Below, one piece after another: positions 11,707 to 50,292 of a DNA stretch of 57,915 nucleotides (position 1 is its first letter; each line of letters begins with the position of its first letter). The notes under the pieces are model-generated. The model was given only the letters and a program-made list of their open reading frames with translations, was not told the origin of the DNA and searched no databases. Both the position numbers and the translations under genes were made by a program. The DNA comes from an uncultured virus (IMG/VR IMGVR_UViG_3300042884_001169) (lineage: Duplodnaviria; Heunggongvirae; Uroviricota; Caudoviricetes), in IMG/VR virus record IMGVR_UViG_3300042884_001169; one strand, written 5' to 3'.

Positions 11707-11710
11707 TCAA

Positions 11711-35100: not shown

Positions 35101-36681
35101 ATCGACGTTCGGAGTTGCTTCCAACGCATCAAGAGAGTTAATCCTGATCGAATCAACTTCATCCAAGTCGAAACTTCCAGCAATGTTCGCCTCTAAATAG
35201 TCGTGCGTGCTTTCACCAGTACGCCATTCCGTCGCACCAAACCCCGACTGGCTGCTTTGTGTTGTCCCCCGAGTAGACCCGTTACGCTCACTTTCGAGCA
35301 TGTTCAAAATCACAGCAGTCGGATTTTTCTGTCCAGATCCATTAATCAAAACTGACGCAATGTATTCCGGATCATCTTCATCCATACCCACAACACCCGG
35401 TCCCCCATGATTGATGGAATCTCCAAGACTCCACGCAGTTCGATCAAGAACCTCCGGCTTCAAGTCAATCGTAATATCCCCGTAGATGTCGCTAACGCCC
35501 GTAAGTCTTTTCTCCAGTTTTTGGTCTTCACCGCCCGCACCGTCATCAACCAAATCAGCCACTTCCCGAGTAATGAGATAACCGGCTGCAGGACGAACGT
35601 CAACAGGAGCACTTGGTGGAATACCTATTACGCGCGCATCCGTCGTAGTTCGACCAGCAACTCCCGCGTTATCAGTCGCAGTGCCACGATCAAACACCGT
35701 CTTATAGCGTCCATCGCGAATAAACCCTGCGAGTTTGCTCCACGTCATCTTTACGCGAACTCCGCCGCCCTTAACTTCTTCCTGCACCCTACTCGCCTGC
35801 GACAAAAGCATCTGGTTCAGTTCCTGATCAGAACTTTCCAAAACAAGAGTTTTCAACTCATCCGGCATCGCATCGATACTTTTGCGATCCACCTCTCGAA
35901 GTGCGAACTGTCCGTTTGCATCGAACTCGCCCGTTTCCAAATATCGGCGAACCGAGAACAGTGAATTTGCCTGTATCTTGCGTCTGCGCGCGATCGCCTC
36001 CGCTCTCGTCACTGGCACCCCGAGATTCGATTCAGTACCCTCGTCGGCCTCTTTCTGTCGAGCCTCTTTGTACTCATCATCGATACGACCCATCATTGCG
36101 CCCGCCTCGATAAGTTTCTGCTTAATCGAAGCGTTCTTCTTCCGGATCTGCTTCGGAGTCATAGCAGTCAATTCCGATTCAGCCTCCGGCTCCGGCGTCT
36201 CTGCTTCTGGCGCGCGCGGCGTTTCGACTGCAAGGAAATCCAGCACCTCAGGATCAAGCGGTTCAAGATTCAGACCTTCCCGCTCCCGCTGCGCCAGAAG
36301 AGCATCAGGCCTACCAAAAGGAACCCGCTCAGGAGGCGTAACAAGATCACGAATACTCGGCAAACCGCTTTCGCCAATACTTACCGCACCATGCTCACTA
36401 AGAGCAGTACCGCCCGCAGCGCCACCAGCCGTCTCATACGAAGGCGTGTAATCGACCTTATTGCCCTGAGCATCAACAACCCGAACTCCACGAAGTCGCG
36501 TAGCAGAATTCGCCCCAGCCGCAATTGGAGAACCAGCGGAATCCTGCAGGAACGTACCGTCAGGACGCTCCCACGCTGTGCCTTCCTGAATGATCCCATC
36601 GCCATCGGCGTCGCGCGCTTGAGGATCATATGGCTCTAACCGGAGTCCCCCCCAACGCGTGCTTGTGCCAGAAATTGCCAT
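29143..36681 (-). CDS. 2512-aa modular putative virion/ejected protein: 3 leader repeats, 4 DUF3626-like domains, 1 DEDDh 3'-5' exonuclease
   Basis: EPYDPxARDxDGDGIxQE..WERPxGT x3; KSQFET..RPIYG..RTT..GDS..YxExQIHGGV x4 (first copy degenerate); LDFETTG..AHNAPFD..HDAMAD. Confidence 0.85.
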   Translation of the reverse strand: MAISGTSTRWGGLRLEPYDPQARDADGDGIIQEGTAWERPDGTFLQDSAGSPIAAGANSATRLRGVRVVDAQGNKVDYTPSYETAGGAAGGTALSEHGAVSIGESGLPSIRDLVTPPERVPFGRPDALLAQREREGLNLEPLDPEVLDFLAVETPRAPEAETPEPEAESELTAMTPKQIRKKNASIKQKLIEAGAMMGRIDDEYKEARQKEADEGTESNLGVPVTRAEAIARRRKIQANSLFSVRRYLETGEFDANGQFALREVDRKSIDAMPDELKTLVLESSDQELNQMLLSQASRVQEEVKGGGVRVKMTWSKLAGFIRDGRYKTVFDRGTATDNAGVAGRTTTDARVIGIPPSAPVDVRPAAGYLITREVADLVDDGAGGEDQKLEKRLTGVSDIYGDITIDLKPEVLDRTAWSLGDSINHGGPGVVGMDEDDPEYIASVLINGSGQKNPTAVILNMLESERNGSTRGTTQSSQSGFGATEWRTGESTHDYLEANIAGSFDLDEVDSIRINSLDALEATPNVDEEVIDEYFSQEFLESVGFTESQIKFLLERKKQGSYELKDFVGFGSLYKLKSKQQAVELVKKLKNQHGVKLLMGDSGVEVTVESLEREVQEAINELDAYWDGLKQKVADEIQEELEDAVAQVIEAATGDPEAVVTKGLYEALQIKAPLNFRRRLIEEPYDPDARDGDGDGIVQEGTPWERPAGTRIMDASGTEIARGQISTFRSRSHRIVDTNGNAVDYVPSYERSDVGTIGRSVGVVRGPERDAEDSVAVDPNVNRPSRVPDYLRTAAKGKRGQARSGDGPIATSYTSRFMSVMSAARTAFLNIGRLRTFSSPNADNIAEEEDRADRISTALGIPSRFAGFSKLRDAAEIVFPVSPEPAVAERWQEASKQLFEEAEEFIQELHDERGVYVAVPFYALFGEDGNEEDVEQGVIFEPGIIRDERIKSQFETWTSQGLYNPEYRSEFELDHMNVPEDAADFERPIYGYIPSRMKDDGIEPDASGDRARVYTGGGGVFIRLRPEVSERTTVSLGDSLDHRLYPIPLDKELRDEHVRQLDAEGAALSGQELLIVGALGGAAEDILAARLVDRFIEENLSGNDSLSDIWNPGQIEAGLGRSLDYIETQIHGGVDLSDVEEIVLPVRLQFDGDNEGRPLAPDFLASANPHAKRLLAAARKHGFTVSWEDENRKKTVYYSATPQAPKAQASASSSTFTGSKPDPIPSASIEDMDMSPGTNADSMDRDELIAPVKPRAPYTPAPPPFSGRAAEIVDRAEGDFERVLELLDEEGYWLLDFETTGFDHGNMPTQVAMVRVQDGKVVQRINQFINPDRPLSEWSRQHLRDGDGNPLTEEWLAENGISVEDAQGRLSAVLNGQIVVAHNAPFDLEVLQRIVDENDGTLQLGGSVDTLALMRMAVPKGDGEETGPTSHALGSLASYLGYELGDGAHDAMADVDATNEVLRRGLLSAVDNERAEVGVLDNAYMADLYEKQKQEHAVSMAKHRDAMREYNKQVFEYRRALSESKDTEIPDVRVPYTPGPATGEAVIERAATSRAATKSLMMEKLIDLLADVGKGEEGDLEWERLSSAIRDALGREEVDVSDPRLRREWLAEKLTPLLERDDDFINELIDNALNEYADRELVKQIYVPATESTAATIIAEGRIQTHFETQPEGFTQSLRDRASVESELLGVPRDTADRGRPIYGFIPRTPDAGFAGNSQLDPDPTRDAATMHGPVLFRLKDDVRARTTATFGDSMTGSVGTAVPLTEAAREALLASFPDPTNGSRGDVRTGLLHAAVSDDFHEAAASIAARAWIDRLPEELRRGVLRRIRSEEAQAMIRPQNPRYVETQIHGGVALEDVAEIVLPNSTESLGEDIREVLRLARERSIPVVTADGRVPLETDVGWKFITPNASEQTDTKAFVGPRIEAKAASRRAALIDEPYDPDARDGDGDGIVQEWTVWERPAGTKLYIDGKPVTRGQRIQSTSITARPNNLVIRDAAGNEVNYVPTYMPKPEEGTIGADLGRLTPEPAEQGEVPKPVGSEVDAAKPKKRGSPLSDVGTPSLQELGASSVRQTARPAAAPLAPVPEGQTPQVPSGVDARRDRPIPDRKSIRRRYMPGVSGLYSVQTDDMQNRMRQYMATQVEGVRGLFLSKLIETFLDQLSETMALDSPRAADELVDMFGPIIVSPEAFREELSRITRPGRNSIMMHGQTYDLLEKMFSEHFDADIADAIVEAYRDEIELLTSGPIRIAIGSEALLLVLEEGRVKSQFETGYSQGSFAPEFRQNIENRIMGIPQNLPETLRPIYGFFADQQRDFGWNEDDELVVTPLTDVPPNQSSRPYGDHQIILRGEIRDRTTATIGDSFGSRGAVVPLDETVLEEIGAVLGYFTEDNEIDLDRVKNIVYMLSFSGAPSHQTISILAMEGLMRRQSPRKEAMLRKLILDSGVFRVGSIGDSNWMGYQYTEAQIHGGVDIEDIEKVILPYADISEVPLALVKLLEDRNIPFSLSPRGFDQ

Positions 36682-37048
36682 ATCTTGAGATTACTGTATT
36701 CGTGGCTTTAATGTTTCAGGTAAACAGTCCCGCTGGGAAAAATCCACCCGGGGCTGCGAAATGCTTTGGTATTTAGTTTGTTACGGTGTCGATTTCGCGC
36801 GGGTTATCCACAGGTTTTTGTCCGTGCTGTGGAAAACGTTATCCACAGGGCTGTCCACAGGCTGTGGAACGTGGATCGAACACTTGTTCGTGTGACGGGG
36901 GTCACTGGTGGGGGTGGGGGTCGGGTGGGTGTGACGGGTGTCACGGGTGGGGCGTGTGACATATTTCACGGTGGAATCCGGTGCAGTCCGGTGCTGGACC
37001 CTATAAGGTGCAGTCATGACATCGAACGGCGGAGAGGGGGTGAATGAA

Positions 37049-37255
37049 ATGAACGAAATGACAGAGTATGAACTACTCAAGATGACGCGTGAGTTGTTTG
37101 CGAACAAGGGCGCTCAGTTTGGGCGTGCGGTCAGCAACCAAGGGTACGACGTCTTCACTGCTCATGATCTGGCGAGGTTGTTTTGCCCGCTTGATCCAGA
37201 CGAGGCAGACGCGTTTCTCTACGGGGTGACGCAGGCGTATCTCGCTAGGGCCTAG
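37049..37255 (+). CDS. cassette 1 micro-protein (68 aa; alternative leaderless start at 37016)
   Basis: GGAGAGGGGGTGA RBS; hairpin follows. Confidence 0.75.
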   Translation: MNEMTEYELLKMTRELFANKGAQFGRAVSNQGYDVFTAHDLARLFCPLDPDEADAFLYGVTQAYLARA

Positions 37256-37726
37256 CCCAAGGGGTGGCCCCCGGTTCGCCGGGGGTCATCCTCTCCCGAT
37301 CTGTTGTCCACATCCCCCCTGTGGATAACTTGAGGCCCTCCCCGTTCCGCCGCGGGGAGGGCCTCCCCCTTTGCGAAACAGCCCCGCTGGAGGGTTTGGT
37401 CTATTTTTTTTACGGTGGCGATTTCGTTTTTGTTGGGGGGGGGTATTTAGTCCCGCCTGCACCTGTTGGTGCCGGGGCTGCGAAGGCTGCGATGCGTTTT
37501 CCGCTCCGGGGCTGTCCGCGGTTATCCACAGGCTTGCGCGGGTCGTTGGTTGTCCACAGGTTTGTTCATGCCCTGTGGATTGTTGGTTCGAACGATTGTT
37601 CGGTGACGGGTGTCACGTTTGGGGGGGGTTGAGGGTGTGACAGGATTCACACGGCTGCAGGTTGTAGGTGTCAATTGTTTCTGGTAGTTTCGGTGCATGA
37701 TCACGAACGGCGGAAAGGGGGTGAAC

Positions 37727-37900
37727 ATGGAAAATCTTCAGAAGTGTTCCGAGTGCGGCGACAGCGTTGCCACATTGTGGAATCGCGGTCGTTGTTGGGA
37801 CTGTCACGACGCCTCGTGCGCGTACAGCCTCAACGGTGATTCGGCCCCTGATGCGTTCGATCCCGCTTATGCGGGTGAGCGTTGGGATGACGATTACTGA
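37727..37900 (+). CDS. cassette 2 micro-protein (57 aa, CxxC..CxxC, acidic tail)
   Basis: GGGGGTGA RBS; CSEC and CWDC. Confidence 0.75.
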   Translation: MENLQKCSECGDSVATLWNRGRCWDCHDASCAYSLNGDSAPDAFDPAYAGERWDDDY

Positions 37901-37911
37901 TCGGCTCCGCG

Positions 37912-37968
37912 CTACTGACTAGGATTCGGCGCCGCCGGGGGCGTGGCAACAGCACCCCGGCACCACCA
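37912..37968 (+). ncRNA. candidate structured RNA element, copy 1
   Basis: 57-nt element repeated at 39282-39338 with a compensatory pair change and a GCAA tetraloop. Confidence 0.4.
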
Positions 37969-38470
37969 TTCTCGCGACCCCCTGTGATCCGCCGCACGGG
38001 GGGTCGCGTGCATCCCCGGCGCGTGTCGCGCGCGGGCCGACCCCGGGGCTGTCAGGCGCTTTGGTCTATTTTTTCTTACGGTGGCGATTTCGGCAAGGAT
38101 TTCGAGGCGAAAGTCCCGCTGGAGGTTTGCGCGTTGCGGGGCTGTCGGGAAGTTATCCACAGCGGCCTGTGGATAAGGTTGTCCACAGGTTTTTGCACAG
38201 GGTGTGGATAAGTTATCCACAGGCGGGTGGTGTGACGGTTGTCACATTCGAACGTCTGTTCGTGTGACGGTGGTCACATGTGACGGGTGTCACTTTCGAA
38301 CATGTGTTCGTGTGACGGGTGTCACATTCGAACGGGTGTTCGGTGACGTTTGTCACAAAGTGTTTGTGTGTCGAATGTCACATGTGCCTCTTGTCACAAG
38401 AGGTTGGTTTTTGACCTTAGGCCCTATAGGGTACTGGTATGACATCGAACGGCGGAAAGGGGGTGACAGA

Positions 38471-38668
38471 ATGGAAACTATCGAAGTAGTCGACTGCAAG
38501 GTCGAGGTCGAGGACATCGAGGGTCGGCCTACCTATCGGGCGTACCTACCCGATGGCGAATGGTTCGCAACCTACGTCGAGGGCGTAATCCCGCCCCCGG
38601 GCTACCCGTCCGGGCGTTGGTCCTCGCCTGAGCAATTCATCGCATGGATCAAGTGGGCTAGGTCCTAA
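38471..38668 (+). CDS. cassette 3 micro-protein (65 aa)
   Basis: GGGGGTGA RBS; hairpin follows. Confidence 0.75.
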   Translation: METIEVVDCKVEVEDIEGRPTYRAYLPDGEWFATYVEGVIPPPGYPSGRWSSPEQFIAWIKWARS

Positions 38669-39122
38669 CATCGAGCGTCCCCCGGGGTCCGCCCCCCGGG
38701 GGTTCGCTTCGGGCCATCGAGGGGACCCGCCCCCCTCGATGGCCCACTCCCCAGTCCCGCTGGGATCTGTCTCTATTTATCCTACGGTGGCGATTTCGCA
38801 ATTTATTGGTCGAACAGATCAGTCCCGCCTTCGCCTTTCGGCTCCGGGGCTGCTGCGAAAGTTATCCACAAGCGGGTGGGGATAACTTTATCCACAAGTT
38901 CATCCACAGGGTGTGGAAAACTTATCCACAGGTTATCCACAGGCTGTGGACAACCGCTCGAACACGCGTTCGGTGACCTCGGTCACACTGCGAATCGAAC
39001 AAGTGTTCGTGTGACGCGCGTCACGTTTGGGGCCGCAACCCGTGTGACGGAATTCACAGTGGAATTCGTCCTTGACCCCGGTAGGGTACAACTATGAACG
39101 ACAACGGCGGAGGGAGGTGAAC

Positions 39123-39272
39123 ATGGCAGGAACATGGCAGGATCACGTCGACTGGGAATCAGTCGAACGGACCGGGCGCCTCGAAGAAGAGGACGTTTGG
39201 CAGGCGATCGCCGATTCCGAGGACCTCGACTACAACGAGATCGCGGACGGTGATCTCGCTGAATGGTTGTGA
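39123..39272 (+). CDS. cassette 4 acidic micro-protein (49 aa)
   Basis: GGAGGTGA RBS; 16 D/E versus 2 R. Confidence 0.75.
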   Translation: MAGTWQDHVDWESVERTGRLEEEDVWQAIADSEDLDYNEIADGDLAEWL

Positions 39273-39281
39273 TCCATTCCA

Positions 39282-39338
39282 CTACCGACTGAGCGTCGGC
39301 GTCGCCGGGAACGTGGCAACAGAATCCCGGCACCGCCA
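39282..39338 (+). ncRNA. candidate structured RNA element, copy 2
   Basis: second copy of 37912-37968. Confidence 0.4.
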
Positions 39339-39874
39339 AGTACGCGGCACCCGTTAGCGCCCGCCACGGGTGCCGCCCTAGCGAGGCCCCCTCGATCCGC
39401 CGCGAGGGGGCCTTCGCTTCACCTTGTTCTTTCGGCGATTGAGAAGGACAGCCCCGGCCCCGTTCTGGGTCTATTTATCATACGGTGGCGATTTCGCGTT
39501 TGTTAGCCCCGCCCCAGTCTGTCGACTGCGGGGCTGGTGGCGAGTTATCCACAGGCGGTTGTGGATAAGGTTTTCCACAGGTTTGTCCCCATGCTGTGGA
39601 TAAGTTGTCCACAGGTTTTCCACACCTTGTGGATAACTACGTCGAACAGGTGTTCGGTGACGTCGGTCACAGGTCGAACAAGTGTTCGGTGACATTCGTC
39701 ACAGGTGGATCGAACGTGTGTTCGTGTGACGTCGGTCACATTGTCCATCGAACAGGTGTTCTGTGACGGGCGTCACACTTTCGGGCCGCAACCGATGTGA
39801 CAAGAGTCACGGTGGAATTAGGTTGTGACCCCGGTAGGGTGTACCTAACAACGACAGGCGGAGAGGAGGGAACA

Positions 39875-40078
39875 ATGACTACAGCACTCTTTCACGGAGG
39901 GACGAAGTGGTCGGCACAGACCGAACGCGACGAAGACCTTGCACTAGGTTTCGGCGTGGTTTGGACCGTGTTCGACGAGAACAACGTCCGGGTCGGCGGA
40001 TTCGTCGGCAACGAAGAGGACGCCCTGAAGGTTCTTCGGACACAGAACTACGGGGAACCGCTTCGGATCACGGTTTGA
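39875..40078 (+). CDS. cassette 5 micro-protein (67 aa)
   Basis: GAGGAGG RBS; hairpin at 40084-40108. Confidence 0.75.
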   Translation: MTTALFHGGTKWSAQTERDEDLALGFGVVWTVFDENNVRVGGFVGNEEDALKVLRTQNYGEPLRITV

Positions 40079-40586
40079 TCCACGGCCCCCCGGTTCGTCC
40101 GGGGGGCCACCCTCGATCTTCTCCCCCGGGATTCCGCCCCCGGGGGGGCGCTCCCCGCAAGGGTTGAGCGAACGATGACCCCCGGGATTCCGCCCCCGGG
40201 GGTCATCGCCCTTTCCGGGTGCGCGCCTCGCTTGAGGAGAACAGCGGGACTGTCGTGTTGTTCTATTTATTCTACGGTGGCGATTTCGACTGATTAGCCC
40301 CGCCGTCGCCTGACGGCTCCGGGGCTGGCGCGCGTTTTCCACAGGTTTATCCACAGGTTGGGGAAAAGTTATCCACAGGTGAGGTCGAGTCCTGTGGATA
40401 AAGTTATCCACACCTTTTTCCACAGGCTGTGGGTAACTTGTCCACAGGTTTTCCACAGGCGGGGTCGAGTGTGACCGGCGTCACAGTTTGGGGCCGGTTC
40501 GGCGTGTGACAAGAGTCACGGTGGAACTAGGTTGTGTCCCCGGTAGCCTGTAAGGCATAAGGAACTACGGCGGAAGGAGGTGCCAA

Positions 40587-40760
40587 ATGAAGCCCTACGA
40601 ACACGACGAGTACTACGAAGAGGAAGAGATCGAAGAGGATCACGAATCCGGTAAGTACGAGATGGAGATGTACTACTGGGAGGATCACGACTACCGCGAC
40701 CCGCGGACGGCCGCTAATGATCCCGACCAGTACGAAGATGATCCATTCGATGAATGGTGA
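40587..40760 (+). CDS. cassette 6 extremely acidic micro-protein (57 aa; not in the ORF track)
   Basis: AAGGAGGT RBS; MKPYEHDEYYEEEEIEEDHES..DDPFDEW; 24 D/E. Confidence 0.8.
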   Translation: MKPYEHDEYYEEEEIEEDHESGKYEMEMYYWEDHDYRDPRTAANDPDQYEDDPFDEW

Positions 40761-40836
40761 CACCTAGCCCTAGCGCCCCCCCCACGGGGGGGGCGCTTAG
40801 GCCCCCACCCGCTACACTCCCCGGAAAGGAGAAACC

Positions 40837-40959
40837 GTGAACTCTCAAAGTGTCGAATCAATCCACAACTTGCTCTGCTACCAAGCCGAAATGAAGGCTA
40901 AGCGTGAGCAGGAAGAGCAAGAACAACAGGACGACGAAAGTCAGCCCGACGACGAGTGA
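40837..40959 (+). CDS. 40-aa acidic peptide (not in the ORF track)
   Basis: AAAGGAG RBS, GTG start; ..EQEEQEQQDDESQPDDE. Confidence 0.6.
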   Translation: MNSQSVESIHNLLCYQAEMKAKREQEEQEQQDDESQPDDE

Positions 40960-41267
40960 CGAAAGTCACAGTCGCTCGACCTGAGGCTCCCCCGATCCGC
41001 CGCGGGGGAGCCTCACCCCACGGGGAACCCCACCCACCCCTAGTTCTAATAACCCTACGGTGTCGATTTCGGCTCGACCGACGACAGCCCCGCTGCCGCT
41101 GCACTCCTACTTCCAGTTTCGCGAACAGTTCGATAGCCCCGCCGTCGCCTAACGGCTCCGGGGCTGACACGCGTTTTCCACAAAGAGGTGTGGGCGCCGG
41201 GGCTGTCCCAAGAGTTATCCACAGGGGTGTGGATAAGTAGGTCCCCGGCGAACCGGGGACCCTCTCC

Positions 41268-41501
41268 TTACGAGTAATACCCGAACGTGCCATTCACGAC
41301 CGTTCGCAAGTCCTTCACGGTGTACCACTGGTTTTCGTTCATGAGAACGTAGTGGTCGTCCGCTGCACCTGCACCCCAGCCGGGGTATCGGGTGGCGAGT
41401 GAACTGGAGCGGTGGACGTATTCCGTGGCCGCTTCGATGAGCGAGTCGAAGTGTCGGGTGATCCACCCGTACTTTTCTCCGCCGTAGACGGTGTATCTCA
41501 T
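41268..41501 (-). CDS. hypothetical protein, paralog of 41653-41913
   Basis: own promoter GTGGAA-N17-TAGGGT and CCTACTAC leader. Confidence 0.75.
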   Translation of the reverse strand: MRYTVYGGEKYGWITRHFDSLIEAATEYVHRSSSLATRYPGWGAGAADDHYVLMNENQWYTVKDLRTVVNGTFGYYS

Positions 41502-41652
41502 AGTGACCCTTTCGGGGTAGTAGGTGATGGTTACACCCTACAGGGGGCAGTCGCGTTTTCCACCGTGACATTTTTCACACTCGGCGAGGTTGGTATTCAC
41601 CCTTACCGCCTATAGGGTGCAGTTATCCAATAGAGATCGAAGGGAGGCAACA

Positions 41653-41913
41653 ATGACCGAATACAACGTATGGGGTGGATACTCCTACGCAGTAGGCACC
41701 GAAGAGTTCGACACTCTTCTCGACGCCGCTGAGCAGTATGTCCGCAGGTGCGCGCCCGCGCTTTACTTTTACCCGCTATGGGGCGAAGTGGGACCCGACG
41801 ACTACGTCATCACGACGGAGCACGAAGGGTGGACACTTTCCGACCTGCAGGCAATGATCGACCTCGCCAATAACGAGGTTCGCTCGATTAGCCCGCTAGG
41901 CGTCCGGTCCTAA
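41653..41913 (+). CDS. hypothetical protein, paralog of 41268-41501
   Basis: GGAGG RBS; shared YxVxGG..FDxL..AA..YVxR..YPxWG motif. Confidence 0.75.
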   Translation: MTEYNVWGGYSYAVGTEEFDTLLDAAEQYVRRCAPALYFYPLWGEVGPDDYVITTEHEGWTLSDLQAMIDLANNEVRSISPLGVRS

Positions 41914-41964
41914 CCTAACCCGGCCCCCCGGTTCGCCGGGGGGCCACTACCCGAAAGGCTCACA

Positions 41965-42363
41965 ATGAGCGACACGTTCGTAGTTATCGAACCAACCGGC
42001 TACGCGTTGGTCACCGACACCGGCACCGACACGCTAGCCACCCTGCAGTTACTCGTAGACGGACTTGTAGAGTGCGTCACCCCTAACCCTAAGGTTCTCG
42101 GCTTCACCGCCGACGTATGGGTGAACGAAGAGGGCCTCTACCGGTCGGACTTTTCGATCAATCTGCTGGCCAGTTATCTGACCGGCCGACAGTTGGTCGG
42201 CCCTGCAGTTCTCGCCCGCTCGACTAGCCACGGGCGAACCGTGGGGCTAACAGAACGGCACCTAGAACGACTCACGGCTGACAGTCTCTTTCTCGACTAC
42301 AACGACGGGAAGAACTGGACCGCCGAAGAAGTAGTGGCACGGCGAGAGGAGGTGGAGGGCTGA
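41965..42363 (+). CDS. DUF3846-like protein
   Basis: LQLLVDGLVECV, WVNEEG, NLLAS, LVGPAVL. Confidence 0.7.
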   Translation: MSDTFVVIEPTGYALVTDTGTDTLATLQLLVDGLVECVTPNPKVLGFTADVWVNEEGLYRSDFSINLLASYLTGRQLVGPAVLARSTSHGRTVGLTERHLERLTADSLFLDYNDGKNWTAEEVVARREEVEG

Positions 42364-42737
42364 CCGGCCCTTCACCCCTCGGGGACCCCCCCTATTGCTG
42401 TAATAACCTTACGGTATCGATTTCGCCCCCTCGCTCTGGTTGGGGAGGCAGTCCCGCAGCCTTTCGGCTGGTTAGTCCCGCCCCCAATCTTCCCCCTAAC
42501 TTTTAGCCCCTTTCAGGTTGTTAGCCCCGGCCCCCAGTTTGCGCTGCGGGGCTGTTGGCGTTTGTGCGGGTCTGCGGGGCTGGCGCGCGCGCGAGGTTAT
42601 CCACAGGTTTATCCACAGGCGGAATGGGGGTGAGTTATCCACAGGCTGGGGATAAGTGTGTGTGACAGATGTCACGGTGGAATCTGGCGCTGACCCCTGT
42701 ACGCTGCAGTTACCTACTACCTAACCGGAGGATTCCG

Positions 42738-43253
42738 ATGGTCACCCAAGCAACCGACAAACAGGTCGCGTATCTGCTATCCCTATGGGAAGCAATCGCT
42801 CACCCCGCCCACGAGGTCGAAGCGGTCCGCAACGGCACCCTCACGCTCGGCAGGCGTGAAGCCTCAGACCTTATCGAAGAGGCCAAGACCCGCAAGACCC
42901 TCACCCGTCGCGCCACAGCGGCCCCCGCGGTCACACAGGGTCTCTACATCACAGGCGACGCTCAGTCGGCGAAGGTCCACAAGGTCGTCCTGTCCGCCCG
43001 TGGCAACCTGTACGCCAAGACCCTCACCCCCGGTGGCGGTCGTGGACGCTGGGAATACGCGCCGGGTATCGTGAACACTCTCACCCCCGAAGATGCCCTG
43101 ACCCCTGCAAAGGCTGCCGAGTACGGCAAGACCCAACGCGAAGGCTGGGACGGCTCGATCCTTGTGTACTGCGCCTGTTGTGGTGCCGAACTAGACAACG
43201 AGGAATCGCGAGATCGCGGCATCGGCCCGGTCTGTTTCCGCAAGTACTTCTGA
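42738..43253 (+). CDS. DUF6011-like zinc-ribbon protein
   Basis: ATDKQ N-terminus; CACCGAEL..SRDRGIGPVC. Confidence 0.75.
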   Translation: MVTQATDKQVAYLLSLWEAIAHPAHEVEAVRNGTLTLGRREASDLIEEAKTRKTLTRRATAAPAVTQGLYITGDAQSAKVHKVVLSARGNLYAKTLTPGGGRGRWEYAPGIVNTLTPEDALTPAKAAEYGKTQREGWDGSILVYCACCGAELDNEESRDRGIGPVCFRKYF

Positions 43254-43268
43254 CCTTCGGCTAGATCG

Positions 43269-43299
43269 AAACAGCCCCCCCTAGTGGGGGGTTGTTTTC
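43269..43299 (+). terminator. intrinsic terminator
   Basis: AAACAGCCCCCC-TAGT-GGGGGGTTGTTTT. Confidence 0.75.
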
Positions 43300-43402
43300 G
43301 TTGTGTCGCAAGTCACGAGAATAATCCACAGGCGAGGTTGTGTCCTGTGGAAAACCCCGGTAGCCTGCTACCTACACCTACTAGCACCTGAAAGGAGGAA
43401 AA

Positions 43403-43678
43403 GTGAAAACTGACCTCAGCATTTACAACGATCGAACCGGCAGCATGACCGTGGACACCCTAACGTTCACGGTTCGCGTACTGGAGGCTCGAAACCGATA
43501 CGGCCACCTCGACTTCCGCGTCACCCCAATCTCAGGAGACGGTGAACGATGGGTCGAACAGCACCGGGTCGCCCTGCAACCGGAACTAACTACCACTACG
43601 GTAGAGATTTCGGACACTCTCATTCATGAGATCAAGGCTCCCGCGAACGCCCGCGTTATGTCATTGGATCATTTCTGA
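43403..43678 (+). CDS. hypothetical protein
   Basis: AAAGGAGG RBS; promoter -10 TAGCCT at 43361. Confidence 0.75.
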   Translation: MKTDLSIYNDRTGSMTVDTLTFTVRVLEARNRYGHLDFRVTPISGDGERWVEQHRVALQPELTTTTVEISDTLIHEIKAPANARVMSLDHF

Positions 43679-43703
43679 CCTGATCCCCCGTACCAGCCGG
43701 GGG

Positions 43704-43940
43704 TCAGAACAGACTGTCCTGATCTAACGATGGACGCAACTTTTTGTAATCCATGCAAGTGTTGCACAGAAGACCCGGCTCCGGTTCGGGGAACGCGATG
43801 TGGTTCGCTCCGCCGGACTTGCGGTTCTGCACCCAACCGTTCACGCGGCGCCAGACGCCCGGCTGATCGGGTCGCAACGCACAGCCACAGATGTCACAGA
43901 CGTATAACGGCGGTAGCCCCGCCCGATTCGTTTCACTCAT
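43704..43940 (-). CDS. CxxC..CxxC zinc-finger protein
   Basis: CDIC and CNTC. Confidence 0.6.
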   Translation of the reverse strand: MSETNRAGLPPLYVCDICGCALRPDQPGVWRRVNGWVQNRKSGGANHIAFPEPEPGLLCNTCMDYKKLRPSLDQDSLF

Positions 43941-44073
43941 GCAGACACTTTACAGGCTGATAGTCCCGCCGCCTCACTTCGTTCGGCGGGGCTGCCGCGG
44001 CTGTGATGTCATGATGTCATGATGCGGGTGGACGCGAAAGGCCCCCGCCGTAGCGGGGGCCGGTTCGTTCGGG

Positions 44074-44196
44074 TCAGGCTTCGCAGTCGTGACCGTAGGC
44101 GACTTCGCAGTCGCAAAGTTTCTGCTCGCATTCTTCGCATCGCTCAAAGTCAGCGAACCCGTCGCAATCTTCGTTAGTTGGGTGCTTAGATGCCAT
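44074..44196 (-). CDS. 40-aa Cys-rich acidic peptide (not in the ORF track)
   Basis: TGATG coupling to the upstream gene; MASKHPTNEDCDG..CEEC..CDC..HDCEA. Confidence 0.6.
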   Translation of the reverse strand: MASKHPTNEDCDGFADFERCEECEQKLCDCEVAYGHDCEA

Positions 44197-44474
44197 CAGT
44201 CGTCCGCCTCGTTCCAACTGTCAATGATGGCGTGGAGTCGATAGTTTTCGACGATGGCCCACGCTGGGGCGCTTGTGTCGCCCTTGTACAGAACACCTTC
44301 GGGAAGGTCGATGTACTGATTGCCTTCTTCGCAGAATGCGTGGTCGATTGCTTGGACGCAGATGGGGATCATCACGTCGGGGACGGGTGGGTAACAGTTT
44401 GCTTTCAGATGCCACGAAACTGCTGTTTCGATGTTGGTCTCTGACGCAAGGTCGAAGAGGTTGTTGTATCCCAT
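44196..44474 (-). CDS. hypothetical protein
   Basis: promoter GTGGAA-N17-TAAGGT, CCTACTAC leader, AAAGGA RBS. Confidence 0.75.
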   Translation of the reverse strand: MGYNNLFDLASETNIETAVSWHLKANCYPPVPDVMIPICVQAIDHAFCEEGNQYIDLPEGVLYKGDTSAPAWAIVENYRLHAIIDSWNEADD

Positions 44475-44629
44475 TCGGTTCCTTTCGGTAGTAGGTGACT
44501 TACAAGGTACACCTTACCGGGGTCAGGACCGTTTTCCACCGTGACACTTGTCACAAGGTGTGGAGGTTGGTATTCGCTGCTGTCCCCTATAGAGTGTTGG
44601 TCACTACCCCTACTACGGAAAGGTCGCTC

Positions 44630-44926
44630 ATGAATGGCGACATCAGGATTGTGAAGATCACCCCTACAGGTGACATCTACAAGCACCCTGCCCGTTACTC
44701 GGCAGGAAACGAATGGACATTCCCCATCGAATACACGTTGGAAGATGGCCGCGTATTCTCATCACGATCGACGCACAAGCGTCTGAAAGATGCGAAGGCT
44801 GAACTAGCAACACTTCCTTGCGAGCCACGGAATCACACCACGGCAATCTTCCATGATGACAAGTTTGCTGGCGTGACGATCCACTACGGCATGATTACCG
44901 CGTGGCCCGTCGCAACGCTCGGCTGA
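44630..44926 (+). CDS. hypothetical protein
   Basis: promoter TTGGTA-N17-TAGAGT, CCTACTAC leader. Confidence 0.7.
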   Translation: MNGDIRIVKITPTGDIYKHPARYSAGNEWTFPIEYTLEDGRVFSSRSTHKRLKDAKAELATLPCEPRNHTTAIFHDDKFAGVTIHYGMITAWPVATLG

Positions 44927-45005
44927 ATCTGTACAGGGGGGTTGTGATTCTCGCGACCCCCCTGTATGCTGTCTCTATACACCTACTACCCGTAAGGAGA
45001 TTCCC

Positions 45006-45209
45006 GTGACCGTACTTATCTGTCACCCCGGAACCGGCACGATTATCGACGCAAGCGAATGCTACGTCCTGACTGTCTACGATGATGACATCGACACCGA
45101 AACCATCGAATCAGCGATGGACAGTTTCTATCAGATGGTCTCGCCCGAAGGTACTCACTTAGAGACCCTCGAAGGCGTTCTCGATCCATCACTCAGAAAG
45201 AGAATGTGA
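45006..45209 (+). CDS. hypothetical acidic protein
   Basis: promoter TTGTGA-N17-TATGCT, AAGGAG RBS. Confidence 0.7.
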   Translation: MTVLICHPGTGTIIDASECYVLTVYDDDIDTETIESAMDSFYQMVSPEGTHLETLEGVLDPSLRKRM

Positions 45210-45439
45210 CTATGCACCCCGTCCAATACCACTACATCGTGTGGGCAGAGGTCCATGACGGCAAAACCGTTTGGAACGTGGACATCGAAGGCGATGGCCT
45301 ACTGTTCGATGGACCTGTCTACGACCCGAACGCCACGCTAGGCGACGAATGGCGCACCCTCAACGAAGACGAGCAAGGCCTCGACAATCGGCTCTACGCC
45401 GAACTACGGGATCGACTGAAGATCGGGGAGGGGGACTGA
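45206..45439 (+). CDS. hypothetical acidic protein
   Basis: GTGA overlap. Confidence 0.7.
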   Translation: MTMHPVQYHYIVWAEVHDGKTVWNVDIEGDGLLFDGPVYDPNATLGDEWRTLNEDEQGLDNRLYAELRDRLKIGEGD

Positions 45440-45682
45440 CCCCCTCAACCCGGCAGGAGAGCCTTGCCAGTCTCTAATAACCTTACGGTGTCGATTTCGG
45501 CTGACTCTAACTACAGAAGAGAACAGTCCCGCTGCCGCTGGCAGCAAAGTCATTAGCGGTAAGAAGATGAAAGTCCCGCCGCTTCGCTTCGCTCAGCGGG
45601 GCTGGCGCCGCGCGTTATGCACAGGCTGTGGATAACCGGTGCGGGGCCTCCCGCTCGCGTGGGGGTGGGTGGTGACCCGCCG

Positions 45683-45868
45683 TTAGGCGGGCCACGCTTC
45701 CCTCGGTCGGAGTCCGTCGCCGAACACTTGTTCGAGTGCTTCTTCTGTTCCGCAGTCGGAGCAAATCTCTGTCCGGTTGTCGGTGCGTGAGAGCGCGCCG
45801 GGGTAGTGGCCGGGGGTCCATGCGTTTGGAATGGGTCCGAGGCATCGGGGGCAGATTGGGGTGGTCAT
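45683..45868 (-). CDS. small zinc-finger protein (CPRC..ALSRTDN..ICSDC)
   Basis: GGAGG RBS, ATGA overlap. Confidence 0.75.
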   Translation of the reverse strand: MTTPICPRCLGPIPNAWTPGHYPGALSRTDNRTEICSDCGTEEALEQVFGDGLRPREAWPA

Positions 45869-46077
45869 TGTGTCACCTCCTGTGTGGTTCCGTTGGTGAT
45901 TGCGGCGAGGTCGCCGCTGGCGATCATGTTGAGTAGGTCGCGTACGTCTCCGAGAGCCTCACCGTGGTAGGGCATTGCTCTGAGGTCTAGGACTGCGATT
46001 ACGTCGTCCACCATTGAGGCTGCTATTAGTAGGGCTTCGTGGAGTTCGTCGGTGACTGTGATAGTTGTAGTAGGCAT
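45865..46077 (-). CDS. hypothetical protein, probably leaderless
   Basis: ATG 7 nt after -10 TATCGT; no RBS. Confidence 0.65.
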   Translation of the reverse strand: MPTTTITVTDELHEALLIAASMVDDVIAVLDLRAMPYHGEALGDVRDLLNMIASGDLAAITNGTTQEVTQ

Positions 46078-46206
46078 AGAAAGAACGATACCGGGGTGGG
46101 GGGCAAATACCAACCTCGTTGCGTGTGACAAATGACACGGTGGAAGTTGTAGTTGGCCCCTGTATAGTGGTCCTTGTTAGTTACACCTACTACCGAAGGA
46201 GTCCAC

Positions 46207-46596
46207 ATGGACCCAGCAAAACTGTACGACGCAACCGAGGCGGTGCTGGCAGCGAGAAAGGCTGCACAGGACGCTGACCTTGCCAAGAAGGCTGCCGAGG
46301 CCGAGTTTGTCGCTCTCATGGAAGATGCGAATCTCCCCTATGTCGAAACGTCTGATGGCGTTCGCATTGCTGTCGAGGTTCGACCGTCCAAGAAGTACGA
46401 CGCGGCTCTCGCATCGGACCTGCTGGCCGTAGAGACGTTCGACCGTGTTGTGAAGGCTGTGATCGACGCTAAGGCGTGGAACGCTGCCTGTGAGGTCGGA
46501 CTGATCGAAGATCAGATCGCCGAGAAGGTGATGACCGTGACCTACAGCACACAGGTTCGTGTGTACGGTGACGGTGTGGCCGGTTCGCGGTCCTGA
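46207..46596 (+). CDS. hypothetical phage protein
   Basis: promoter GTGGAA-N17-TATAGT, AAGGAG RBS. Confidence 0.75.
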   Translation: MDPAKLYDATEAVLAARKAAQDADLAKKAAEAEFVALMEDANLPYVETSDGVRIAVEVRPSKKYDAALASDLLAVETFDRVVKAVIDAKAWNAACEVGLIEDQIAEKVMTVTYSTQVRVYGDGVAGSRS

Positions 46597-46693
46597 CAGA
46601 TCGGTGTGGCAACTGTCACGTTTCGCACAGGTTGTGATTCGTGGCAGTTGCCTGTAGCCTGTTACTCACTACCCCTACTACCGAAGGATCACA

Positions 46694-46972
46694 ATGACCG
46701 ACGACGAAATCTTTGCAAATCTCGCATGGGAATGCAAGGAATCTCAAATCAACGAAATGGCCGATCACCTGCTTCGCCTCGTTATGTTCACGATGCAAGA
46801 GGATTACGAGCCGACCCCCGAAATGCAGGAGCAGTTCAATGGTCTAATGACCGACGCTGTTCTGTCCTTTGGGGCATTGACCGACTATGCCGTCGAAACA
46901 GACGCAGCGGTCGTGAGTGTTGGGGCGATGGGGCAAATCCTCATTGCAGCCCTTACAGCCCGCCAAGCGTGA
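46694..46972 (+). CDS. hypothetical protein
   Basis: promoter TTGTGA-N17-TAGCCT, AAGGA RBS. Confidence 0.7.
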   Translation: MTDDEIFANLAWECKESQINEMADHLLRLVMFTMQEDYEPTPEMQEQFNGLMTDAVLSFGALTDYAVETDAAVVSVGAMGQILIAALTARQA

Positions 46973-47039
46973 CAAACGTCACGGTGGAACTATCGCCTAC
47001 AGACGATAGAGTACTACCTACTACCCCCTACTAACGGAA

Positions 47040-47771
47040 GTGAACACCATGAATACCGACAACCTCCCCGAATGCTGGAAAGAGTTCTACGACGTACTCT
47101 CCGCTGGCATCGACCGCGTGATCCTGTTTGGACCGCCCGGAACTGGCAAGACCTTCGCTGGCCTCACAGTCGGCGACACAACCGCAGGAGCGTACCGACT
47201 CGCCTGCACCGAAGAAATGACCACCGCAGACGTCACAGGCTGTTTCATGCCGACCGACACAGGCGTGTGGAAGTGGAACGACGGTGCTGCCATCAAAGCA
47301 TGGCATGGTGACGGACTCACAGGCGGTCGCCTCGTCATCGACGAAATCGACCGAGCCAACGGCGACATCGAATCGCTACTACTCGCCATGACCGACACCG
47401 TGGAATCAACGGTGTGGGAACACCCCGAAACAGGCAAGCGAATCCGACCACGCGATGGGTTCTCCGTTGTGATGACCACAAACTTGGAGCAGATGACCGA
47501 ACTGCCGACCGCTCTCAAAGATCGGTTCCCGGTGGCGATTAGGATCAACACCCCCCACCCGAACGCCCTCCTCGCCCTCCCCGAAGACCTCCGAGCAGCA
47601 GCAGCAGCAAGCGCTGACGCTGACCGTAGCCGACGGTTCTCAATCCGAGCGTTTCAGTCCTACGCCAAGTTGCGTGGATCGATGGGATCGGAACGAGCAG
47701 CACGTCTGATCTTTGGAGAACGAGCCGAGGACATTCTCGACGCCATTCGCATCAACGAGGTCGCACTATGA
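47040..47771 (+). CDS. MoxR/CbbQ-like AAA+ ATPase
   Basis: GPPGTGKT, LVIDEID, TTN, ALKDRF. Confidence 0.9.
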   Translation: MNTMNTDNLPECWKEFYDVLSAGIDRVILFGPPGTGKTFAGLTVGDTTAGAYRLACTEEMTTADVTGCFMPTDTGVWKWNDGAAIKAWHGDGLTGGRLVIDEIDRANGDIESLLLAMTDTVESTVWEHPETGKRIRPRDGFSVVMTTNLEQMTELPTALKDRFPVAIRINTPHPNALLALPEDLRAAAAASADADRSRRFSIRAFQSYAKLRGSMGSERAARLIFGERAEDILDAIRINEVAL

Positions 47772-49189
47772 CCGCCCCCACGTCGCCTAGCGGTGTCGCC
47801 ATGCCTGAATGGCTGGCGCGCCGCGACCGCGAAAACGGTGCATGGAACGTGGTCGCAGGACAGGCCGTCCGAGGTGACGCTTGGACCAACGCTACCGAAC
47901 GCATCATGCGAGTCCCCATCGGTGGCGACGAAACGAACCGAGTAATCCGCGCCCACGAAATGATGCACGCGAAGGTATCCCCCCTCGCAGCGAACATCGG
48001 CCAAGAGGAAGAGAATCTTCCTATCGAAGTTCTCCGAGCATCAGAAGAGATGCGCGTGAACTTGCTGGTGAAATCCGCAGGGTTCGACACCGACCTTTTA
48101 GTCGATGGCTCCGAGCGTGGCTGGGGCGAACGAGCAGCAGAGATGAAGGACTACACGTCCCTCGCTACCGCTGTCGTCGCAATGGCCGGAACGAAAGGTG
48201 CCACATCGTTTCTCCGAGGCGTCCGCAACATCGACCCCGAACTGGCGAAGGCCGTTCGCGAGATCGAAAAAGTGGCCCTGTCACACTGGACGAAGCCTGC
48301 CCGTCGAACGAGCGACAAAGCAGTCGCAAAGAAGTTCGGGTCGACCACAAGTGTCCACTACTGCGACCAAGAGATTCCGCAGGGCTACAACGACTTCACC
48401 CTGCCGGTCGCACGTTTCCTGAACTCAGCAATCGAAGCCCTCACCCCACCGGAAGGTGAAAGTGAAAGTGACGGTGAAGATTCCACCGATGAGAAAGCAG
48501 CGGAACGCGTCAAAGACGCTGCCCGTGGCAGGCGTGGAAAGTTCGCCGACCTGATCCTCGATGAGTCGGTCGTTCTAGATCGAACAATGACTGGCCGACT
48601 TGGCCGGAAGCGAATCGCCACGAACGTGGGACGCAATCCTCGCCACATGAGCCGAATGCTCACCGATCCTCAACGTCGAATCTTCGACCGAACGGTCCGA
48701 GGCAAGGGTGGCATGGTTGTCATCGACCAGTCCGGTTCGATGTGTCTGTCGAACGGTGACATCGAAAAGATGATGGAAGCGTCCCCCGGTTGCACCATCA
48801 TCGGCTACTCGCACCGACCCGGCAGCACGACCACCCCGAACGCGTGGGTGATCGCCAAGAACGGTCGCCGAGCGTCCGAGGTTCCCTCAGGACACGGTGG
48901 CAACGGGGTCGATGGCCCTGTCCTCCGGTTCGCTATCTCGTCTGCCCGTAAGGGTGAGCCGATCGTGTGGGTCTGCGATGGTCTCGTCACAGATGGAAGA
49001 AACGATACTTCCTTCAGGAATCTAGATGAAGAGTGCGCTCGGCTGGTACGCAAAAACGGAATCCACATGGTGGCGTCCGTACAAGGCGTCGAAGCGGCTC
49101 TCCTGAAAGTTGCGAGTGGAAAGAAACTACCGACGACGTATGTCGGTCAGGTTCGGGCCACAGCAATCGACCTCGGGTTCCTGTACTGA
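47768..49189 (+). CDS. HExxH metallopeptidase-like plus vWA domain protein (AAA partner)
   Basis: HEMMH..EE; MIDAS DQSGS; CDG; ATGA overlap with the ATPase. Confidence 0.8.
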   Translation: MTAPTSPSGVAMPEWLARRDRENGAWNVVAGQAVRGDAWTNATERIMRVPIGGDETNRVIRAHEMMHAKVSPLAANIGQEEENLPIEVLRASEEMRVNLLVKSAGFDTDLLVDGSERGWGERAAEMKDYTSLATAVVAMAGTKGATSFLRGVRNIDPELAKAVREIEKVALSHWTKPARRTSDKAVAKKFGSTTSVHYCDQEIPQGYNDFTLPVARFLNSAIEALTPPEGESESDGEDSTDEKAAERVKDAARGRRGKFADLILDESVVLDRTMTGRLGRKRIATNVGRNPRHMSRMLTDPQRRIFDRTVRGKGGMVVIDQSGSMCLSNGDIEKMMEASPGCTIIGYSHRPGSTTTPNAWVIAKNGRRASEVPSGHGGNGVDGPVLRFAISSARKGEPIVWVCDGLVTDGRNDTSFRNLDEECARLVRKNGIHMVASVQGVEAALLKVASGKKLPTTYVGQVRATAIDLGFLY

Positions 49190-49980: not shown

Positions 49981-50292
49981 CTACTTCCTTGTGAACGCAG
50001 CCTTGTCAAAGACTCGGATCAAGTTCACAGCCAAAGCGATCGAAACAAACGGACCCCACGGCAACCCTGTGTTGTCGATAAATCCAACCTGCTCGATCAT
50101 TCTGAAGATTGCCCACACCAAGGAACCCTGAATGAGACTCAAGACAATCAGCACAACCAGCCCAACGAAGAAACCTTTGGTTGCCTGCGACGAAGCGTCG
50201 TCCGTGGGACGGGGTGGCTGGAAGTCTCTGAACTCCTTTGGCTCAAAGAAGTCCTTTGACTCAAACGACCAGAAGCCCTTTGGGTCGCTCAT
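49981..50292 (-). CDS. two-TM membrane protein
   Basis: two hydrophobic segments; ATGA overlap. Confidence 0.65.
   Translation of the reverse strand: MSDPKGFWSFESKDFFEPKEFRDFQPPRPTDDASSQATKGFFVGLVVLIVLSLIQGSLVWAIFRMIEQVGFIDNTGLPWGPFVSIALAVNLIRVFDKAAFTRK

Follow-up and report, generated by a model that had tools for sequence, protein, structure and literature searches.

The window described here, 57,915 nucleotides of the uncultured virus record IMGVR_UViG_3300042884_001169 (IMG/VR; Caudoviricetes), contains between about 36.7 and 47.0 kb an array of cassettes in which small genes are set behind long non-coding stretches filled with sites of the DnaA, LexA, and CRP type. The design of this array is real, strongly non-random, and conserved, and by its sequence features the array is a hyperplastic early ('host-takeover') gene region, laid out as a tandem row of autonomous transcription units (Table 1). 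Arrays of regulatory cassettes are already known from phage early regions, whereas the operator stack for three regulators in phage early cassettes appears to be new; no description of such a repeated stack came up in full-text literature searches aimed at it, supplementary files aside. Phage takeover is usually explained in terms of small proteins, and the early region of this phage consists mostly of non-coding operators for host regulators. The reading that we favour, tentatively and at somewhat less than an even chance, is a predicted control of the early promoters by host factors. Titration of the same factors by the array is a serious rival, and the two are not mutually exclusive.

The non-randomness of the array is evident from motif counts, for which the expectations are the counts in shuffles of the sequence. 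The 16-mer TACGGTGNCGATTTCG starts, with at most one mismatch, at nine positions on the plus strand (36782, 37411, 38077, 38783, 39481, 40273, 41056, 42410, and 45484), exactly where an earlier note on this DNA had placed it, and with at most two mismatches it gives 14 matches against 0.12 expected. The DnaA-type box TTATCCACA gives 56 matches with at most one mismatch (9.1 expected), 47 of which lie within 36804-45635 in 11 clusters of two to nine boxes of mixed orientation. Forty-one of these 47 boxes are an exact TT[A/T/G]TCCACA (26 TTATCCACA, nine TTTTCCACA, and six TTGTCCACA), the remainder being single variants. Neighbouring boxes are separated by a gap of 1-3 bp in 22 of 35 cases and of 2-3 bp in 18 of 35; a preference of E. 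coli DnaA for 2-3 bp spacing in box pairs has been described (PMC11317965). The LexA-type sequence TCGAAC-N4-GTTCG yields 24 strand-matches (2.3 expected), amounting to 12 distinct sites in 36876-45735 and one elsewhere; ten exact boxes and one with a single mismatch lie within 36876-39762, and one further box at 45720. The CRP-type palindrome GTGAC-N4-GTCAC has 32 matches (2.5 expected), all except two of them in 36892-46982. Collectively, the three box types are 6 to 13 times above the shuffle counts and are almost confined to 36.7-47.0 kb. In addition, a hairpin of 30-32 nt, AGYCCCG...CGGGGCT with arms separated by N16-18, is present in ten copies, all on the plus strand.

Only 1230 of the 4274 nt of units 1-6 (28.8% of 36782-41055) are coding, so that the earlier figure of about two thirds non-coding even understates the value of 71%. 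It had also been claimed that the motifs are conserved and the sequence between them is not, and this is borne out by four DnaA clusters compared in an ungapped register, in which box columns are 72% and linker columns 47% identical. Beyond G003 and G002, two collection contigs of 50,193 and 69,534 bp to which the window is 100% and 99.95% identical, respectively, the exact 16-mer shows in the viral contig collection only single matches without the other motifs, taken as chance, and a scan for the pattern of hairpin arm plus DnaA box returned only the present phage and a few weak candidates. The inverted DnaA-box pair TTATCCACA-N6-TGTGGATAA was considered as a marker of the system and rejected, as it is not specific: more than 114 viral contigs of diverse types carry it. 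In an unrelated viral contig (L260, 129-290), seven direct GGTTATCCACAGG repeats, which are DnaA-box-like, lie directly upstream of a gene.

Each unit follows a stereotyped order. Each open reading frame (ORF) is followed by one to three strong GC hairpins, with (A)TYCGCC(G) as a frequent loop sequence, and then by a weak hairpin on an AGYCCCGC half-site, found by a terminator scan, that ends in the T-rich TCTATTTWTYY. There follow the 16-mer, the 30-32 nt hairpin, the DnaA cluster, the LexA/palindrome composites (units 1-5 only), the promoter block, a strong ribosome-binding site (RBS; GGCGGAGAGGGGGTGA-like), and the ORF, with a control region of 450-550 bp per unit. The overall anatomy proposed earlier is thus upheld, by the counts against shuffles and by the relatives described below, although several of its details had to be amended. 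The hairpin spacer is N16-18 and not strictly N17; the alternation of LexA boxes and palindromes holds for units 1-5 and is absent from the other units; and the single ORF of 49-68 aa is found in most units, whereas unit 6 holds two (57 and 40 aa). The 16-mer is real, but the AT-rich stretch before it is the T-tract of the weak terminator-like hairpin. Moreover, the module does not always stand ahead of a single promoter: the DnaA boxes of units 7 and 9 are separated from the following plus-strand promoter by minus-strand genes that have promoter blocks of their own, and the module there precedes a promoter hub. The hairpins with the common (A)TYCGCC(G) loop include those at 37978-38008, 38678-38708, 39341-39422, 40122-40152, and 40178-40208. 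At 39341-39422, a sub-threshold Rfam match to actinobacterial 6C RNA (31 vs 47 bits) covers two terminator hairpins and was taken as chance.

The LexA-type box abuts the GTGAC-N4-GTCAC palindrome in all 11 composites (one to four per unit in units 1-5), in two registers one base apart and with centres about 14.5 bp apart. The earlier note had placed a -35/-10 promoter in each cassette; a sigma-70 consensus scan called none there, and a conserved promoter block of about 50 bp is present instead. Eight copies of this block, 72-92% identical and on both strands, consist of the palindrome, (N)GTGGAAN, exactly 16 nt, and TAnnnT. When the TAnnnT hexamer is taken as -12 to -7, the palindrome centre falls at about -42.5 in the eight promoters, and the -35 element beside the last palindrome is poor (GGTGGAAT). 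This arrangement resembles a class II CRP site, in which TGTGA-N6-TCACA is centred near -41.5 beside a weak -35 element. The full TGTGA-N6-TCACA is matched by four of the 13 palindrome core matches in locus L055, the outer T and A being confined to a part of the sites. The single palindromes at 41565 and 44541 are each common to two divergent promoters, and a variant promoter with GAGGTTGGTWTT and TATAGGGT is found in units 1-3 and at two other genes. In units 1-5, about 90-130 bp separate the centre of the nearest LexA-type box from the -10-like hexamer downstream, as estimated from coordinates, and no LexA operator there overlaps or adjoins the core promoter. The inverted repeats of the array are the promoter blocks and the DnaA clusters; no long arms of the IRC/IRD type were found in it.

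The host is most likely an actinobacterium, because the capsid protein encoded in the window resembles those of Brevibacterium and Gordonia phages (45-47% identity). As had been claimed, the three box types match by sequence the consensus sites of host DnaA, LexA, and CRP-type factors; we take them to be the consensus operators of DnaA, actinobacterial LexA, and CRP/GlxR, of which the LexA core alone was checked, in Cellulomonas. The operator consensus of actinobacterial LexA is the palindrome TCGAAC-N4-GTTCGA, and the LexA-type boxes of the array fit it. Judged from these sequences, the DnaA-type boxes are probably bound by host DnaA, and binding of the LexA-type boxes by host LexA is just as probable; that a host CRP-type factor binds the GTGAC-N4-GTCAC palindrome is only somewhat likelier than the converse. 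Searches with Bac_DnaA_C and LexA_DNA_bind gave no usable match at E<=0.1 in G002, G003, and the 98%-complete relative G004, the sole domain match being a 13-bit fragment with a stop codon. A weak Crp-type helix-turn-helix (HTH) match outside the window was set aside, as it belongs to a 144-aa MarR-like winged-HTH (wHTH) protein without a cNMP domain. Within the window, a 138-aa protein (50289-50705, minus strand) has a helicase-associated (HA) domain and an HTH that is sigma-70 region 4/HTH_23-like, and is a candidate phage regulator for an orphan motif.

The conservation of the plan could be followed in relatives, for which 79 related-phage loci with a conserved 473-aa protein (47768-49189 in the window) were retrieved. 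DnaA-box clusters occur in only two of these phages, the present one and G004 (155,887 bp). The latter has seven clusters of two to four DnaA boxes at 149.7-155.1 kb, each with GTCTATT and hairpin arms before it and a conserved promoter-like block and a small gene after it; LexA and palindrome boxes were not found in these clusters. The L061 lineage shows the same plan of hairpin (GAGCCCCGC...GCGGGGCT), box arrays, promoter, and small gene, with different boxes, GCGCGTATC three to five times and CCTATCTATGG three times, and with promoters of the perfect sigma-70 type (CGATTTGACA-N17-TGATAGATT). Because the plan recurs in G004 and, with different boxes, in L061, the succession of hairpin, box stack, promoter, and micro-gene is, by sequence comparison, a trait of the phage group, and the boxes that fill the stack vary by lineage. 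The high-copy 9-mers TTATCTACT, TTACCTACA, and TTATCTAT of other lineages were considered as diverged DnaA boxes with a co-evolving phage protein as binder, and this idea was rejected, as they are the reverse complements of -10 regions and are distributed singly, with one for each small gene.

The LexA/palindrome composite has a wider distribution. In L140/L098 its 29-bp form precedes TTGACG-N17-TACACT and a phosphatase-like gene, a composite is also present in L136, and in L116 the LexA boxes adjoin GTGTGACA. Among 185,579 species (one genome each), the exact 29-bp composite has two matches, both in actinobacteria, namely Cellulomonas xylanilytica and an Actinomycetes metagenome-assembled genome (L343 1501-1529 and L344 1501-1529). 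In both genomes it lies in a gap beside HTH_17 (excisionase-like)/integrase genes, which places it within control regions of integrated elements, and such a composite may be an SOS-linked switch of these elements. The composite is thereby conserved in phages and in integrated elements. The 4.4-Mb Cellulomonas genome has the LexA core at ten places, one of them about 330 bp upstream of a match to the lexA DNA-binding domain. The early promoters of L098 and L116 have TGTCACAC within the spacer, eight bases upstream of a TACACT/TATACT -10 element, a layout that resembles that of the actinobacterial RecA-independent damage promoter.

Activator-dependent promoters under cis-regulation are favoured because the position of the palindrome is invariant, the -35 element is poor, the LexA box is coupled to the palindrome, and the composite occurs elsewhere in regulatory contexts. 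The fixed order of parts in the units and the lack of a phage DnaA or LexA DNA-binding domain in the searches above lend further support. Under this reading, host RNA polymerase would fire the cassette promoters with the aid of a CRP/GlxR-type activator at the class-II-like position. LexA would compete or cooperate with the factor on the abutting palindrome, and at distal sites it would hinder or modulate the activator, so that DNA damage would alter the output; it would not act by occlusion, because its boxes lie 90-130 bp upstream of the -10 element. DnaA oligomers on the upstream clusters would insulate or tune each unit, and in E. coli a complex of DnaA with its box can indeed block RNA polymerase. 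Early small acidic takeover or counter-defence proteins could in this way be wired to the replication, damage, and carbon state of the host, and a virulent phage would read replication, DNA damage, and carbon or energy supply before committing its early programme. Some sequestration of host factors would be an expected by-product, because the sites are so many.

Several points weigh against this reading. The failure of the sigma-70 consensus scan to call any cassette promoter makes a phage-specific sigma factor or activator possible, and the distance of the LexA-type boxes, an estimated 90 bp or so at least from the -10 element, is not the classical occluding position. Consensus DnaA boxes should bind DnaA in any nucleotide state, as in E. 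coli, and would be poor sensors. Up to nine DnaA, four LexA, and five palindrome sites for one gene of 50-70 aa are beyond the usual need. Furthermore, phage wHTH and HTH proteins, such as the 144-aa MarR-like protein and the one with HA and sigma-70 region 4-like domains, might bind the motifs, and the searches for phage-encoded binders cover about 120 kb of an estimated genome of about 147 kb.

The strongest rival is a multi-factor sink, in which the main role of the non-coding DNA would be to bind up the DnaA, LexA, and CRP-type factor of the host during multiplication of the phage genome, with stalled replication initiation, SOS derepression, and rewired catabolite control as consequences and the micro-genes merely co-located. 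We regard it as unlikely, although it stays alive because the number of sites, their consensus quality, and the 71% of non-coding DNA, in a phage, exceed the usual regulatory need. The exact DnaA, LexA, and palindrome sites of the array (41, 11, and 21) outnumber those of the whole Cellulomonas genome (20, 10, and 16), which is a comparator and not the host; there are only three DnaA boxes in the other ~110 kb of phage sequence; and two to nine boxes per unit look as if copy number itself were selected. The distance of the LexA boxes, too great for occlusion of the promoters, also speaks for a sink. Clusters of DnaA boxes, as in the DnaA titration locus datA, whose high-affinity boxes lower free or active DnaA, are present in the array, and a like effect of theirs on DnaA would be a prediction. 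However, a sink needs neither the strict order nor the fixed promoter geometry, and the relatives fit it poorly, G004 having few DnaA boxes per unit and neither of the other box types, and L061 having other boxes altogether. A single entering genome adds few sites, so that the earlier wording 'titrates on entry' is quantitatively weak and any effect must await replication. In its boldest form, which we think rather improbable, the array would be a replicating decoy that carries more consensus operators than the host chromosome and drains DnaA, LexA, and CRP-type regulators while multiplying. Host re-initiation would then be blocked, SOS forced, and catabolite control uncoupled, while the timing of the small acidic counter-defence proteins would be set by these very sites, a multi-target takeover device based on DNA and not on protein. 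With a sink of either kind, DNA itself would be a weapon of takeover.

Phage-encoded or virion-delivered regulators might instead be the binders of the boxes, in part or throughout, with mimicry or competition as the reason for the resemblance to host operators and the palindrome with GGTGGAAT a phage-specific middle-type promoter. Conservation of the ~50-bp block far beyond the need of a host promoter, the lack of a sigma-70 consensus in it, and the HTH and wHTH proteins of the phage speak for such regulators, as do the L061-specific GCGCGTATC boxes, which match no host regulator that could be named, and the AGYCCCG hairpin and 16-mer, which have no known host binder. We nevertheless consider this quite unlikely: all three box types presumably equal the consensus of host global regulators (the LexA core was checked in Cellulomonas), no DnaA-C or LexA DNA-binding domain was found in the 98%-complete G004 or in ~120 kb of the present phage, and the presence of the composite in unrelated integrated elements of two actinobacteria favours binders encoded by the host. 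Very improbable is a polar role at the DNA level for the co-oriented module of T-tract, 16-mer, hairpin, and DnaA boxes, as a brake or anchor of stepwise DNA entry via membrane-bound DnaA or as DnaA-dependent replication origins. In its favour, the nine 16-mers and ten hairpins all lie on the plus strand, even beside minus-strand genes, the array begins where transcription diverges, an AT-rich tract adjoins each DnaA cluster, and eight paired DnaA boxes are described for the untranslated pre-early repeats of T5-like phages (10.1101/866236). Against it, the T5 anchor model is itself only a proposal, the contigs end in the array through repeats and not termini, and the tract, at only about 12 nt, looks like the tail of a terminator. 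The phage also encodes a primase-helicase of its own, and the module is not independent of transcription units, since a promoter hub still follows it in units 7 and 9.

The cargo looks like early genes, with strong RBSs, acidic products, and no family match. All seven cassette products are acidic (pI 4.1-4.7), one having 24 Asp+Glu in 57 residues and another five Cys in a zinc-ribbon-like pattern, and searches of Pfam and PHROGs with the cassette proteins gave no family beyond a weak zinc-finger hint. In a comparison with 316 loci, most of which are not related phages, a homologue was found for only one of the seven cassette ORFs (the unit 4 protein, 61% identity in L112), and several genes further right are conserved in 5-24 loci. 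The unit 5 protein has a structural likeness to LPD16 domains that is 'under the bar', and a structure search with the unit 3 protein gave no usable match.

The hairpin and the 16-mer can be compared with those of other lineages. The third base pair of the hairpin is C-G in most copies across many lineages; it is T.G in six copies in the array, two in L101, one in L116, and two in L331, and T-A in four copies in L101. C/A never occurs there on the strand that carries the T.G copies, and the six T.G (wobble) copies of the array are predicted to fold better on the plus strand. Because of this T.G without C/A and the better folding of the plus strand, the AGYCCCG hairpin is suggested to form on the gene strand, either in RNA or in single-stranded DNA; its copies lack independence from one another, however, and single half-sites occur. 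A motif related to the 16-mer, a pyrimidine tract followed by ACGGTGGCGGAAAGC, is found in the relatives L101 and L087, sometimes 12-17 nt ahead of a start codon and sometimes at the head of a control region.

In architecture, the closest known systems by analogy are the PeSL cassettes of T4-type phages, in which a composite of terminator stem-loop and strong early promoter brackets orphan, non-essential genes in hyperplastic regions, with modular shuffling proposed (PMC2839356, PMC4122927). The array has the same joining of a stem-loop terminator to a promoter motif around small ORFan genes, and in both systems rows of small, mostly orphan early genes carry different cargo behind a conserved repeated motif. 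The array differs from PeSL in the length of its cassettes, which at 450-550 bp is roughly tenfold, in its DnaA-, LexA-, and CRP-type box stacks, in a 16-mer and a conserved hairpin, in a promoter without sigma-70 consensus, and in a host in the Actinobacteria. The idea of mobile regulatory cassettes is thereby extended to another phage and host group. Shuffling of cassettes via the common motifs is indirectly suggested by the orphan cargo and by ambiguous contig joints, seen in runs X5/X6 at the 16-mer and DnaA clusters. These joints were rejected as proof of cassette loss or shuffling, as their sides match over only 20-36 nt at 88% likeness, and other phages or repeats may explain them.

For the DnaA boxes, the closest precedent by analogy is the untranslated pre-early repeat region of T5-like phages, where about eight paired boxes with 3-bp gaps lie in two inverted-repeat blocks of the terminal repeat and binding to membrane DnaA at the injection stop has been proposed (10.1101/866236). 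Both are early regions of virulent phages with large non-coding repeats or palindromes and close pairs of consensus boxes away from a known origin, and in the array, too, such pairs lie in untranslated early repeats. The 47 boxes of the array form 11 clusters, one per transcription unit, are combined with LexA- and CRP-type boxes, and lack repeats of the IRC/IRD type. That DnaA binds closely spaced box pairs as a transcription factor is described for the E. coli regulon (PMC11317965).

The host-takeover module of SPO1 has about two dozen small early genes whose products shut down host functions, and clustered small early genes with strong RBSs are common to it and the array. The SPO1 module has many strong early promoters and terminators, some of its products being acidic DNA mimics, and we know of no stacks of host-regulator sites in it. 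It lies in a terminal redundancy. GIL01 and CTXphi are temperate phages that reportedly use host LexA as a switch, with a LexA box overlapping the promoter; in the present phage the contigs contain no integrase, and the boxes lie at least about 90 bp upstream of the -10 element, are fused to a second palindrome, and are far more numerous. The array offers operator stacks that can be tested for uncultured freshwater actinobacteria.

Table 1. Parts of the cassette array, in window positions (L061 in positions of its own locus)
Feature	Position	Strand	Parts
First AGTCCCG...CGGGGCT hairpin	36726..36755	+	Between giant minus-strand gene (start 36681) and unit 1
Unit 1	36782..37410	+	16-mer 36782-36797; 3 DnaA boxes 36804-36847; LexA box 36876-36890 abutting palindrome 36892-36905; further palindromes 36931-36969; RBS 37028-37039; ORF 37049-37255 (68 aa, pI 4.6); GC hairpins 37260-37366, enclosing 2 DnaA boxes 37304-37328
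Unit 2	37411..38076	+	16-mer; hairpin 37449-37479; DnaA boxes 37522-37558; LexA/palindrome composite 37588-37616; palindrome 37637-37650; ORF 37727-37900 (57 aa, 5 Cys, zinc-ribbon-like); GC hairpins
Unit 3	38077..38782	+	16-mer; hairpin 38112-38143; 5 DnaA boxes 38153-38221; 3 LexA/palindrome composites and extra palindromes 38232-38397; -10-like TATAGGGT; ORF 38471-38668 (65 aa); GC hairpins
Unit 4	38783..39480	+	16-mer; hairpin 38821-38851; 8 DnaA boxes 38862-38953; 2 composites 38958-39024; promoter block of palindrome 39044-39057, AGTGGAAT, 16 nt, TAGGGT 39082-39087; ORF 39123-39272 (49 aa, 16 D+E); two GC hairpins 39341-39422
Unit 5	39481..40272	+	16-mer; hairpin 39505-39535; 7 DnaA boxes 39545-39636; 4 composites 39642-39776; promoter block 39797-39840; ORF 39875-40078 (67 aa); GC hairpins 40086-40208
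Unit 6	40273..41055	+	16-mer; hairpin 40296-40326; 9 DnaA boxes 40335-40457; no LexA box; palindromes 40471-40484, 40506-40519; promoter block up to TAGCCT 40544-40549; ORFs 40587-40760 (57 aa, 24 D+E), 40837-40959 (40 aa); GC hairpin 40984-41015
Unit 7	41056..42409	+	16-mer; hairpin 41135-41165; 3 DnaA boxes 41174-41236; minus-strand gene 41268-41501; palindrome 41565-41578 for divergent promoters; plus-strand genes 41653-41913, 41965-42363 (DUF3846)
Unit 8	42410..45483	+	16-mer (1 mismatch); hairpin 42523-42553 and single half-sites; 4 DnaA boxes 42597-42655; promoter block 42662-42705; gene 42738-43253 (DUF6011); remainder with small genes on both strands, hairpin 43962-43993, divergent promoter hub 44541-44554
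Unit 9	45484..46173	+	16-mer; hairpin 45572-45603; inverted DnaA-box pair 45615-45635; minus-strand genes 45683-45868 (contains LexA-type box 45720-45735), 45865-46131; palindrome 46125-46138 with promoter block for gene 46174-46596
L061 tandem GCGCGTATC/CCTATCTATGG sites	1496-1560, 3057-3130, 5146-5225, 8277-8362		In the position of the DnaA/LexA boxes

The window belongs to a large, apparently virulent actinophage of lake water. Besides the capsid protein, its genes encode a class II ribonucleotide reductase, an amidase/PG_binding_1 endolysin, an SNF2 helicase, and a Toprim/AAA_25 primase-helicase. No integrase was found in G002, G003, or G004, and a temperate lifestyle was dropped on this ground, ParB_N-like matches not being decisive. 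DNA searches of an annotated phage collection, for near and distant likeness, gave no match to the window. G003 and G002 meet at window 38737-38742, both ending within the array, and together make up about 120 kb. The genome size of about 147 kb follows from the completeness estimated for them, 34% and 47%.

Apart from two possible source runs, at least half of the sampled words of the sequence are present in six runs of six lake-water metagenome studies, and no RNA run is among those listed. Contigs of four of the six tile the array piecewise, most pieces without differences, the identical ones including 36945-38203, 38741-39601, and 39723-40343, with breaks at the DnaA-box clusters; none of these contigs covers the whole array in one piece. 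Contig ends at the array were considered as genome termini and rejected, since the contigs stop there because of repeats, and a doubling of depth as a sign of a terminal repeat could not be used, as contig depths are flat and uninformative.

Diverging from the array, a giant minus-strand ORF of 2512 aa (29143-36681) combines a DUF3626 domain with an RNase_T/DnaQ-like exonuclease domain, contains a EPYDPDARDGDGDGIVQEGT-like motif three times, and may encode a polyvalent, perhaps injected, protein. Unusual cargo genes lie at 1686-4034, 11633-12583, 17879-18895, and 52286-52834; this cargo comprises a protein with weak, sub-cutoff matches to PI3/PI4-kinase and HipA-like domains, a histone-deacetylase-domain protein, a DUF932 protein, and an Api92-like ferredoxin-fold protein, to which the DUF3846 and DUF6011 proteins inside the array may be added. 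We take such a set to be typical of anti-restriction or mobile-element leading regions. The window also contains two tRNA genes, for Gln(TTG) at 20903-20978 on the plus strand and for Lys(TTT) at 25223-25295 on the minus strand.

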